From Escherichia coli (lineage in GTDB: Bacteria > Pseudomonadota > Gammaproteobacteria > Enterobacterales > Enterobacteriaceae): a stretch of DNA of 64,000 bases. The stretch is from assembly GCF_003790525.1 (NCBI RefSeq), contig NZ_CP033635.1, one strand, 5' to 3'. Shown here piece after piece: positions 46,933 through 52,071 of this stretch. The notes under the pieces were generated by a model. The model saw only the letters and a list, made by a program, of their open reading frames with translations. It had not been told where the DNA came from and did not search any database. The position numbers were made by a program, and so were the translations under genes. Position 1 is the stretch's first letter; every line of letters begins with the position of its first letter.

Positions 46933-47886
46933 ATGCGTTTCAGTACCCAGATGATGTACCAGCAAAACATGCGCGGCATCACCAATTCTCAGGCAGAATG
47001 GATGAAGTACGGTGAACAGATGTCGACGGGTAAGCGAGTCGTTAACCCTTCAGATGATCCCATTGCTGCATCACAAGCTGTTGTTCTCTCCCAGGCACAG
47101 GCGCAAAACAGCCAGTACACGCTGGCGCGTACTTTCGCCACTCAAAAAGTGTCACTGGAAGAGAGTGTACTTAGCCAGGTCACCACTGCTATCCAGAATG
47201 CTCAGGAAAAAATTGTCTACGCCAGCAATGGCACCTTGAGTGACGATGACCGGGCCTCGCTGGCTACGGATATTCAGGGGCTTCGTGACCAGTTGCTGAA
47301 TCTGGCGAACACCACTGACGGTAACGGGCGCTACATTTTTGCCGGTTATAAAACAGAATCCGCACCGTTTAGCGAGGTGGATGGCAAATACGAAGGCGGA
47401 GCAGAAAGTATTAAACAACAGGTCGATGCTTCGCGTTCGATGGTGATAGGGCACACGGGGGACAAAATTTTCGACAGTATTACCAGCAACGCGGTAGCGG
47501 AACCAGACGGTAGCGCTTCTGAAACCAATCTTTTTGCCATGCTGGATAGCGCCATCGCAGCCCTGAAAACGCCGGTCGCGGATAGCGAAGCGGATAAAGA
47601 AACCGCCGCTGCGGCACTGGATAAAACCAACCGCGGACTGAAAAACTCGCTGAACAATGTGCTGACTGTTCGCGCGGAATTAGGCACGCAGCTGAACGAA
47701 CTGGAGTCGCTGGATTCATTAGGTAGCGATCGCGCTTTAGGGCAAACGCAGCAGATGAGCGATCTGGTTGATGTGGACTGGAATGCAACTATTTCATCTT
47801 ACATCATGCAGCAAACGGCATTGCAGGCGTCGTATAAAGCATTTACCGATATGCAGGGATTGTCGCTCTTCCAGCTCAACAAATAA
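46933..47886 (+). CDS. flgL: flagellar hook-associated protein 3 FlgL
   Basis: 317-aa ORF. Confidence 0.93.
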   Translation: MRFSTQMMYQQNMRGITNSQAEWMKYGEQMSTGKRVVNPSDDPIAASQAVVLSQAQAQNSQYTLARTFATQKVSLEESVLSQVTTAIQNAQEKIVYASNGTLSDDDRASLATDIQGLRDQLLNLANTTDGNGRYIFAGYKTESAPFSEVDGKYEGGAESIKQQVDASRSMVIGHTGDKIFDSITSNAVAEPDGSASETNLFAMLDSAIAALKTPVADSEADKETAAAALDKTNRGLKNSLNNVLTVRAELGTQLNELESLDSLGSDRALGQTQQMSDLVDVDWNATISSYIMQQTALQASYKAFTDMQGLSLFQLNK

Positions 47887-47980
47887 TTTCGCTTTAAAAC
47901 ATATCATGAAACTGGGTATGTTTTGTCTGCCTGCTCTGGGATCGCCGGGGCGGGCATTTTTTTGCATGAGACATAACGAA

Positions 47981-48764
<784 letters not shown>

Positions 48765-48847
48765 AAATATATCCTTCGGCTTTGCGTGGATGATAATTAT
48801 ACAGCACATGTAACGCTAATGTCATTACAGCAAAGATGCTACCCCTG

Positions 48848-48880
48848 AAATAAAAAAGCCCTGGCAGTTACCAGGGCTTG
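48848..48880 (-). terminator. rho-independent terminator downstream of rne
   Basis: minus strand hairpin gccctggtaactgccagggc followed by T-run ttttttattt. Confidence 0.65.
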
Positions 48881-48897: not shown

Positions 48898-51800
48898 TTA
48901 CTCAACAGGTTGCGGACGCGCAGGAGCGGCAGAGGCATGATGCGTTGCCGTATGACCTCCTGCGGCACCTTTGCCTTCGAAGGCAAAAGTAGGGCGCTGC
49001 CAGTCACTGTGACGCGGTGCCTCCGGAACATATTCCGGTGCCGGAGCGCGCGTCATTGGCGCGGTAGCGTGGTTATGCTCAACGGTGATCTCTGGTTCAA
49101 CCGCGGCTACCGTTTCAACTTCTGCTGCGACTGGTGCGGCAGGTTGAGCAACAACTTCAGGTTCAGCAACCACAACCTCAGCAGTTTCGGCAACTTCTTC
49201 AATATCAGCCGTCTCTTCCTGCGGTTCAACTACCGGTTCTGCGTGTTCTGCAACTTCCTGGGCTACGGCAACATCAGACTCGGTAATCACCTGCGGCTGT
49301 TCAGTTACCGCGGCGGCAATTACTTCAGGATGCGTCGTTTCAACCACTTCCGGTTGCGGTTCGGCAACGTGAACGGGGGCTTCTACGACTTCAGCCACTT
49401 CTTCAACAACCGGTGCGCTAACAACCGGTTCGACAGCGGCGGCGACAGGGACCTCAGTCACCATCGGCTGCACTTGTACTTCTTCCTGTTCGCGCTGCTC
49501 TTCAACCTGTACATCTTGTGGACGTACAATCGGATAGCGGATCCAGACTTTGCCAGAGGCCAGTTCCGGAGACGCGCACGCTACGGTCAACGGCATTGGC
49601 GATTGGGTTGGATAACGCTCGTCACGATAGCGACGACGACGCTGACCACTCACGCGCAGGTGACGAGGCGAGCGGCGAGAACGACGCGGCATGCCACCGT
49701 TGTCACGGTTATCGGCATTGTTCTCTTCTTGCTGTTCTGGTGCAGCTTGCGCTACGACTGGCAGCGGGACTTTCACCAGTTCTGTGCGTGGAGCTGGCGC
49801 TTCCTGAACAATTGGTTCGCCAGCGACAGTTTCTTCAACCACCGGTGCGACTACCGCTTCTTCGGCTACGCTTTGCTCGTAACGCACTTTCTGATTGAGC
49901 TGACGCTGTTTACGACGCGGCTGAACCGGACGTACACGTTCTTCCTGTTCGGTTTCCTGAACAGATTGCTCTTCAACATTCAGCGCCTTCGCTTCTTGTT
50001 GCGCCTGACGTTTATCATCGTTACGGCGGCGGCTACGTTCACGACGCGGCGCTTGCTGCTCGTCGGTGGTACGCGCTTTTTCCGTTACCTCAGCCTGCTG
50101 ACGGCTCTCACGCGTCTCGACAGTCTGCTGCTGTGCCTGGCGACGATTACGACGGTTTTCTTCGCGATTATCGCTGCCTTCTGTACGTTCACTACGGGAG
50201 TCGCGGCGCTCATTACGGTCACGGCGGTTGTTCTGACGAGGCTTGCGACGATCCTGTTGACGTTCCGGTTTCGCTTCTGCTTTCGGTGCTGGTTGCTCGG
50301 CCGGTTTGGTTTCTTCACCACCGCTGAACAGCGCTTTCAGTGCGCCGAAGAAGCGGCTCAACAACCCTGGTTGTGCAGGAGATGCTGGTGTTGCCGTTGC
50401 AGCTTTAGGTGCTGGGGCTACAACAGGCGCGGCAGGTTCAGCTGGGGTTGGCGCTGGCGGCACATCCGGCATGGCAAAGGTTGCCAGCGCAGGTTGTTCC
50501 GGACGCTTACGTTCAGCGAACTCTTCTTCAGACGGCAGCGCCATCGCTTCTTCATGCAGCTTCGGCAGCATGTAGCTTAAGGTTGGAGTTTCTTCCCCTT
50601 TACGCACGCGCAGCACATGGTAGTGCGGGGTTTCCATCTGATCGTTTGGCACAATCACACAGCGCACGCCGTCCTGACGAGTTTCAATCGCATTCACTGC
50701 AGAACGTTTTTCATTCAGCAGGTAAGACGCGATTGGCACAGGAACAATGGCGTGAACTTCCTGAGTGTTCTCTTTCAGCGCTTCTTCTTCGATCAGACGC
50801 AGAATAGAGAGCGACAACGATTCGTTGTCACGCACGGTACCAGTACCGGAGCAGCGCGGGCAGACGTGATGGCTGGATTCACCCAGTGATGGGCTCAGAC
50901 GCTGACGGGACATTTCCAGCAGGCCAAAGCGAGAAATATGGCTGATTTGAATACGCGCACGGTCCTGACGCACCGCTTCACGCAGACGATTTTCTACCGC
51001 ACGCTGGTGGCGTACAGGCGTCATGTCGATGAAGTCGATAACAATCAGGCCGCCGAGGTCACGCAGGCGCAGCTGACGAGCAATCTCATCGGCAGCTTCG
51101 AGGTTAGTGTTAAACGCGGTTTCTTCGATATCGCCGCCGCGGGTCGCGCGTGCGGAGTTGATGTCGATGGCCGTTAACGCTTCGGTGCTGTCGATAACAA
51201 TCGAACCACCGGATGGCAGACGAACTTCACGCTGGAAGGCGGACTCGATCTGCGACTCGATCTGGTAGTGGCTGAACAGCGGGATCTCGCCGGTGTACAG
51301 TTTGATTTTGCTGCTGAAATCCGGGCGGCCTAATGCAGCGATATGCTGACGTGCCAGTTCGAGCACTTTCGGGTTATCGATAAGGATTTCACCGATGTCC
51401 TGGCGTAAGTAATCGCGGAATGCGCGAACGATTACGTTGCTCTCCTGATGAATCAGGAACGGAGCCGGGCGGCTTTCAGCGGCTTTTTTGATGGCTTCCC
51501 AGTGTTTCAGACGGAAGCTTAAATCCCATTGCAGCGCCTCAGCAGATTTGCCGACGCCAGCGGTGCGCACGATAAGCCCCATGCCTTCCGGCAGTTCAAG
51601 GCTTGCCAGTGCTTCTTTTAATTCGGTACGGTCGTCGCCTTCGATACGACGAGAAATGCCACCCGCGCGCGGGTTGTTCGGCATCAGAACCAGATAGCTA
51701 CCCGCCAGACTGATAAAGGTGGTTAATGCCGCGCCTTTGTTGCCGCGCTCTTCTTTATCGATCTGAACAATGACTTCCTGACCTTCACGCAACACATCTT

Positions 51801-52071
51801 TAATGTTGGGACGACCATGAGCACTGTAGTTAGCAGGGAAATATTCGCGGGCAATTTCTTTTAGTGGGAGGAAACCGTGACGTTCAGCGCCGTAATCAAC
51901 AAAAGCAGCTTCCAGACTCGGTTCAATGCGGGTGATTTTACCTTTGTAGATGTTTGCCTTTTTCTGCTCGTGCCCTGGACTTTCGATATCCAGGTCATAC
52001 AGACGCTGCCCATCTACAAGGGCAACGCGCAACTCTTCCTGCTGAGTTGCGTTGATTAACATTCTTTTCAT
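48898..52071 (-). CDS. rne: ribonuclease E
   Basis: 1057-aa ORF; N-terminal [32 protein letters not shown]1/catalytic domain; Arg-rich and acidic low-complexity C-terminal scaffold half. Confidence 0.95.

Follow-up and report, generated by a model that had tools for sequence, protein, structure and literature searches.

The 81 bases that lie between the rne terminator and an RHH antitoxin gene in the Escherichia coli window (the whole stretch of DNA that was analysed, 64,000 nt long) are very probably the autoregulated control region of a chromosomal tacAT3-type operon, in which a GNAT toxin is paired with an RHH antitoxin. The earlier note had read this region as the promoter of the toxin-antitoxin (TA) operon combined with the operator of its antitoxin, and the comparative evidence supports that reading: the promoter geometry and a palindrome are the only upstream elements conserved with the antitoxin clade, in about 55 species and in unrelated genomic contexts.

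In this segment of the window flgK and flgL lie on the plus strand, and rne followed by a two-gene TA insert lies on the minus strand (Table 1). Alignment with an empty-site genome indicated that the insert stands in place of about 60 nt of the K-12-like rne-flgL spacer. Homology with module-free genomes stops exactly at 48846, after the tail TTTTTTATTTCA of the rne terminator, so that the interval 48765-48846 corresponds exactly to the insert-specific upstream region. Comparison of the insert (about 47965-48845 of the window) with the empty site (L003, 1560-1640) also revealed short sequences close to both junctions, a 6-nt microhomology, TCTTTG, at the left one and ATGCAAAA at the right one.

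The insert of about 880 bp was found in 685 of 5426 complete E. coli genomes, all the remaining genomes having a short rne-flgL spacer. It was always chromosomal, and it occupied the rne-flgL locus in every carrier genome examined, so that about 13% of the complete genomes of the species have a TacAT3-type module at one fixed site. In strain HS-02 (NZ_CP172818.1, 1117796-1117856) the match, at 100% identity, ends after the first 61 nt of the control region (82 nt), and the module may be truncated or rearranged there. At the other end of the TA operon no T-tract terminator is present in the direction of its transcription. The only structure downstream is the flgL terminator hairpin (47928-47956), with its T-run on the plus strand, and TA transcripts may in consequence enter flgL in antisense or stop at the hairpin alone.

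Table 1. Genes and predicted control elements of the rne-flgL segment (coordinates of the window).
Feature	Position	Strand	Basis or remarks
flgL	46933..47886	+	Window segment
TA insert, about 880 bp (control region, antitoxin and toxin genes)	47965..48845	-	Alignment against the empty-site genome ER1821R; right boundary approximate
GNAT acetyltransferase toxin gene, 164 aa, intact	48475..47981	-	Pfam GNAT domains; product WP_000613626.1
RHH antitoxin gene (TacA1/DUF1778), 97 aa	48764..48472	-	Pfam PF08681, E = 3e-22 and 1e-26; frameshifted in the window
Shine-Dalgarno AAGGA	48776..48772	-	7 nt before the ATG
Predicted transcription start zone	48787..48791	-	5-9 nt after the -10; from promoter geometry alone
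-10 hexamer TATAAT (6/6)	48801..48796	-	18 nt from the -35; consensus scan
Proposed operator, 21-bp pseudo-palindrome TGTAATGACA-T-TAGCGTTACA	48829..48809	-	-65..-45 from the ATG
-35 hexamer ATGACA (5/6)	48825..48820	-	Inside the left operator arm; consensus scan
rne intrinsic terminator hairpin AAGCCCTGG-TAAC-...CCAGGGCTT	48879..48856	-	Tail TTTTTTATTTCA extends to 48846
rne	48898..52071	-	Upstream of the TA insert

The best solved-structure match for both gene products was PDB 7AK7 (E = 1e-45 for the antitoxin with chain C, and E = 8e-76 for the toxin with chain A). Some antitoxin alleles are named 'TacA family antitoxin' by PGAP, and the NCBIfam HMMs matched neither the antitoxin nor the toxin. 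The ATG of the toxin overlaps the stop of the intact antitoxin frame, giving a 4-nt ATGA overlap in intact alleles. One intact antitoxin allele is WP_001110446.

A consensus scan for promoters returned ATGACA-18 nt-TATAAT (48825..48796, minus strand), which agrees with the sigma-70 consensus at 11/12 positions; the consensus -10 had been pointed out before at precisely the place where it was found. The TATAAT ends 31 nt before the antitoxin ATG, and this promoter has no TG extended -10. Nowhere else in the window, on either strand, does a sigma-70 match reach 11/12. Shuffled sequence yielded a mean of 0.76 such matches per window, so that finding one inside the given 81-nt gap is an event of about 5e-4.

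The AAGGA reported as a Shine-Dalgarno sequence was likewise present, although its distance to the ATG is 7 nt and not the approximately 8 nt that had been estimated, and a GAGGA or GGAGG block occupies the equivalent place in related loci. The antitoxin ATG (48764..48762) is the start used by PGAP in related genomes. An in-frame ATG further upstream, at 48809, begins the longest open reading frame; it was rejected as the start codon because it falls inside the operator, precedes the -10 and has no counterpart in other loci.

The proposed operator is built around gtaatgacattagcgttac (48828..48810, minus strand), a sequence that is unique in the window even when three mismatches are allowed. 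With one more base on each side it forms the 21-mer, which is symmetric at 7 of 10 positions, a value reached by 0.4% of the 21-mers in the window. The centres of its outer half-sites, GTAA and TTAC, are 15 bp apart, and the element takes in the -35 hexamer as well as the 11 nt of promoter spacer that follow it. The imperfect palindrome described in the earlier note is thus real, rare and conserved, but the "acatgt core" assigned to it does not belong to the conserved element: the ACATGT found at 48811..48806 (minus strand) gives way to ACATGC in other E. coli and to ACGGCT or ACGCGT elsewhere.

A second operator covering the -10, TGTATAA-TTATCAT-CCACGCA (48803..48783), had been prompted by a direct repeat of TGCTGTA with copies 26 nt apart. 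This candidate was rejected: the upstream copy of the repeat occurs in E. coli only, TACA is missing from the right arm, and nothing comparable was seen in distant taxa. Separately, the block just 3' of the -10 (window 48783-48795), TTAATATCCAGAG or, in E. coli, TTATCATCCACGC, is conserved in Enterobacterales (alignment of L005-L041) and absent from distant taxa; it could correspond to the first transcribed bases or to a weak additional site.

To survey related loci, one genome per species was scanned with the antitoxin protein, which yielded 66 loci, and upstream sequence was extracted for 55 of them. All 55 carried the element (C/T)GTAATGACA-N-...TTAC(G/A) upstream of the orthologous antitoxin gene, with ATGACA at positions 5-10 of the element. 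The element starts 55-68 nt before the ATG, except in two loci (-39 in L045 and -50 in L046). A -10-like hexamer, mostly TAnnnT, followed the -35 at 17-18 nt in nearly all of the loci, the exceptions being L035, which has none, and L066, which has a weak one at 16 nt. These loci range from Pectobacterium, Salmonella (the true TacAT3) and Klebsiella to Xanthomonas, Marinobacter, Desulfobulbaceae and Acidobacteria, and their comparison shows a predicted -35 box built into the proposed operator across several bacterial phyla.

The information profile of the Enterobacterales loci peaks at the 21-mer, at the -10, at the block just after the -10 and at the Shine-Dalgarno sequence, while the sequence is freely variable in the final 5-6 spacer bases and ahead of the element. 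Among 18 distinct distant sequences (from Xanthomonas, Sphingomonas, Marinobacter, Methylocaldum, Desulfobulbaceae and Acidobacteria, among others) the flanks are unrelated, and the element and the -10 persist. Near-perfect palindromes, symmetric at 9/10 positions, occur in L025, L035 and L047 (for example TGTAATGACATTGACATTACA and CGTAATGACTTGGTCATTACG), and the G7-C15 pair is invariant in all distinct versions of the element (32/32). On the protein side, the N-terminal beta-strand of the antitoxin, R-x-x-L-N-x-R-I-K-P (LNxRIKP), is invariant across the 55-locus set.

Some genomes harbor two copies of the module, as in one Pectobacterium carotovorum contig (L010 and L011, about 4 kb apart) and in P. 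aroidearum (L016 and L017). Diverged operators were recorded in L010 (CGTAATGAGATAAGCTTTACG) and L043 (CGTAATGGGATAATCTTTATG), both with an unchanged RHH strand, and may reflect drift or insulation between paralogues. In one Salmonella locus (L074, 5237-5294) a second TacA1-family antitoxin gene starts about 2.4 kb downstream of tacAT3.

Part of this conservation would also be expected of a promoter on its own, the palindrome being kept for its -35 box and for a spacer that contacts the polymerase, with no repressor bound. The most conserved bases of the left arm (ATGACA) are the -35 hexamer itself and, in Enterobacterales including E. coli, the inner arms (TGACA on the left, TAGCG on the right) lack symmetry, the dyad being confined to the outer half-sites. 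However, a sigma-70 promoter alone does not constrain the sequence of its spacer. The right arm GCGTTAC is almost invariant in Enterobacterales although it lies within the spacer, which argues for a second ligand that reads the dyad. The near-perfect dyads of distant homologues, the register shared with the KacAT operator and the autorepression documented for RHH antitoxins of this family also speak against a bare promoter, which we consider unlikely.

Fragments resembling the 3' end of tRNA-Phe (TGGTGCCGGACTCGGGA...) and GGTTCG(A/T)TTCC repeats stand ahead of the module in Pectobacterium, Pantoea, Salmonella and Klebsiella. These sequences were located at 2247-2275 and 2391-2420 in L009, about 30-55 nt upstream of the operator in L026, and also in L005, L019, L020 and L073; tRNA-Phe genes lie downstream of the module in L023 and L032. 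ARAGORN detected no tRNA gene upstream of the module in the other genera, where only 3' fragments, and the downstream tRNA-Phe of two loci, were present. These fragments and genes suggest that the module is carried at the margin of islands that have integrated at tRNA-Phe.

Such a position at the edges of genomic islands in other Enterobacterales, together with the frequency of inverted repeats at the ends of mobile elements, could mean that the palindrome serves another protein, be it a recombinase or integration function that mobilises the module or a host regulator. The distance of the element is nearly fixed with respect to the -10 and the ATG, not to the boundary of the insert; moreover, it is present as a single copy with no flanking pair, no recombinase gene accompanies the module, and the E. 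coli insert contains neither tRNA-Phe fragments nor GGTTCG(A/T)TTCC repeats. We therefore hold this alternative to be highly improbable.

The terminator of rne had been placed immediately upstream of the TA operon, and it was found there, as a hairpin whose T-tract reaches 48846. Its stem comprises 10 bp, six of them G-C pairs, closed by a 4-nt loop and followed by TTTTTTATTT; the 61-nt fold has an energy of -24 kcal/mol (z = -4.5), and practically every E. coli genome has the hairpin, with or without the TA insert. By its sequence it is a canonical terminator that looks strong. Read-through from rne into the TA operon is possible in principle, since the module is co-oriented with rne, begins 1 nt past the T-rich tail of the terminator, and no terminator is 100% efficient. 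That the module should be expressed in E. coli mainly in this way, with an internal promoter-like sequence that is weak or silent, has very little likelihood: the terminator has a G-C-rich stem of 10 bp followed by TTTTTT, a promoter matching the consensus at 11/12 positions is unlikely to be silent, and the same promoter travels with the module in dozens of contexts that lack rne, so that read-through is not needed to explain expression. The inverted repeat downstream of rne could also be taken for an RNA hairpin acting in read-through transcripts as an attenuator or processing site, an idea with practically no chance of being right given that the element lies upstream of the predicted start site, that its fold (-5.9 kcal/mol, z = +0.33) was equalled by 123 of 200 shuffles, and that Rfam gave nothing near any gathering score in this region of the window or in L009.

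An RHH antitoxin operator that overlaps the promoter of its own operon is textbook for type II systems, and an autoregulated control region of this kind accounts best for the elements described above. In the proposed mechanism, sigma-70 RNA polymerase would initiate near 48787-48791, about 25 nt upstream of the antitoxin ATG, from ATGACA-18-TATAAT, and AAGGA would serve as the ribosome-binding site in a 5' UTR whose length, about 25 nt, is predicted from promoter geometry. The palindrome (48829..48809) would be bound, by analogy with KacAT and AtaRT, by the two antitoxin RHH dimers of an antitoxin4-toxin2 heterohexamer, the beta-sheet of each dimer (R-x-x-L-N-x-R-I-K) entering the major groove at the GTAA/TTAC half-sites. 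Occupancy of the operator would block RNA polymerase at the -35 box and keep the operon repressed, and a change in the toxin:antitoxin ratio would relieve this repression; the antitoxin-toxin complex thus probably occludes the -35 box and autorepresses the operon. The rne terminator, whose juxtaposition with the operon is due to the place where the 0.9-kb module was inserted, would insulate the TA operon.

The antitoxin gene of the window departs from this scheme. Compared with other E. coli, one base has been lost in a run of C (48535..48539, minus strand; run CAGCC(C/T)CCCGCG), so that the antitoxin frame holds only to about residue 77 and the new frame continues into the toxin gene. The frameshift removes the conserved C-terminal P-N... 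segment of the antitoxin, and the toxin frame stays open; the window therefore lacks an intact toxin-neutralising antitoxin C-terminus. Since the antitoxin is frameshifted before the C-terminus that binds the toxin, the hexameric repressor may not form in this strain, and the frameshift, if real, bears directly on how the operator would be occupied.

The exact 61-nt stretch with the C-run deletion was detected in two of the 685 carriers, 2015C-4136CT1 and E686, and was absent from the other 683. The antitoxin gene is annotated by PGAP as 'frameshifted' in both strains, and their toxin is annotated as intact under the same accession as in other carriers (WP_000613626.1). The two strains differ in their rne and flgL alleles, and over about 1.9 kb the window is identical to neither of them, nor to strain 2014C-3075. 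Differing alleles among the carriers of the deletion imply either recurrent slippage or recurrent homopolymer sequencing error. It is conceivable, if very unlikely, that an antitoxin which keeps its RHH head and has lost its neutralising tail leaves the toxin checked mainly or only by operator occupancy, leakage through the rne terminator being then the main route of toxin expression. Were this true, such leakage would couple the transcription of RNase E to a toxin that acetylates tRNA, and the deletion could be no sequencing artefact but a slippage switch that arises repeatedly and is open to selection.

The comparison provides a testable operator consensus for the TacA3 clade of GNAT/RHH systems, GTAATGACA-N-TGTCATTAC, which degenerates to GTAATGACATTAGCGTTAC in Enterobacterales. 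In the accessible literature we found no description of a TacAT3-clade operator or of the E. coli module, and no experimental evidence of binding or of a transcription start for either the E. coli module or TacAT3. The consensus should be useful for annotation and for the design of EMSA and reporter assays; it leaves the understanding of such systems unchanged.

The closest characterised relative is TacAT3, a functional acetyltransferase TA module of S. Typhimurium (Rycroft et al. 2018, PMC5959882). The Salmonella enterica loci were retrieved with the 7AK7 antitoxin sequence minus its two extra N-terminal residues, the only respect in which that chain differs from the antitoxin of the TacA3 locus. 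Gene pair and gene order are the same in both species; the intact E. coli antitoxin is 81% and the toxin 74% identical to the Salmonella proteins, and the RHH strand is identical. The Salmonella locus carries the 21-bp element CGTAATGACATCTGCGTTACG at -66 from the ATG, with ATGACA inside it and 18 nt to the -10. The two modules differ in their chromosomal site (rne-flgL in E. coli, and next to AraC/LuxR-type regulator genes and a PAP2 gene in Salmonella), in the -10 (the consensus TATAAT in E. coli versus TATGCT), in the outermost operator bases (T..A in the window versus C..G) and in the frameshift, which the antitoxin of the window has and that of Salmonella TacAT3 does not.

For KacAT of Klebsiella pneumoniae the operator has been seen in a co-crystal of the KacA4-KacT2 heterohexamer with the DNA AAATGTACGGTTATTAACCGTACATGA (PDB 5ZGN; Qian et al. 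2019, PMC6698736), in which an antitoxin4-toxin2 hexamer is bound via two RHH dimers. The KacAT dyad TGTACGGTTA-T-TAACCGTACA can be aligned with TGTAATGACA-T-TAGCGTTACA in register and without gaps, with 14/21 positions matching: TGTA, G7, A10, the central T, T12, A13, C15 and TACA. The shared register is TGTA-NN-G-N7-C-NN-TACA, with G2 and C20 18 bp apart, and the outer half-sites therefore have exactly the spacing of a complex in which a single palindrome is read by two RHH dimers of the same hexamer. In that structure KacA touches the G of TGTA with R12 and the C of GTAC with D10 (PMC6698736). These residues align with R17 and N15 of the E. coli antitoxin, whose half-site is GTAA instead of GTAC; a contact between Asn15 and adenine in place of the one between Asp10 of KacA and cytosine would fit this difference. 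The relationship between the two antitoxins is remote (E = 2e-7). The palindromes also differ in position, lying across the transcription start in KacAT (PMC6698736) and over the -35 box in the E. coli module.

AtaRT, from E. coli O157:H7, belongs to another clade of the family (PDB 6GTS/6AJM, antitoxin match E = 6e-5). PMC8138530, which summarises Jurenas et al. 2019, describes a GNAT/RHH heterohexamer that binds its palindromic operator tightly, with an affinity that is lowered by excess toxin, and states that both the AtaRT and the KacAT hexamers repress with high affinity and lose it at high toxin ratios. In Salmonella TacAT (TacAT1) the complex binds within -81..-6 of the start codon and requires the N-terminal RHH (VanDrisse et al. 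2017, PMC5449658); the E. coli element, at -65..-45, falls within this range. TacAT1 has two separable sites (-81..-46 and -46..-6), whereas one conserved dyad is evident in the clade of the E. coli module. The architecture is therefore not identical to that of the characterised relatives, given the two sites of TacAT1 and the KacAT palindrome that spans the start site. Binding to their own promoters has been reported for the TacAT (PMC5449658) and KacAT (PMC6698736) complexes and for AtaRT (PMC8138530); an operator lying over its own promoter, as proposed here for the E. coli module, is an arrangement already documented in all three systems.
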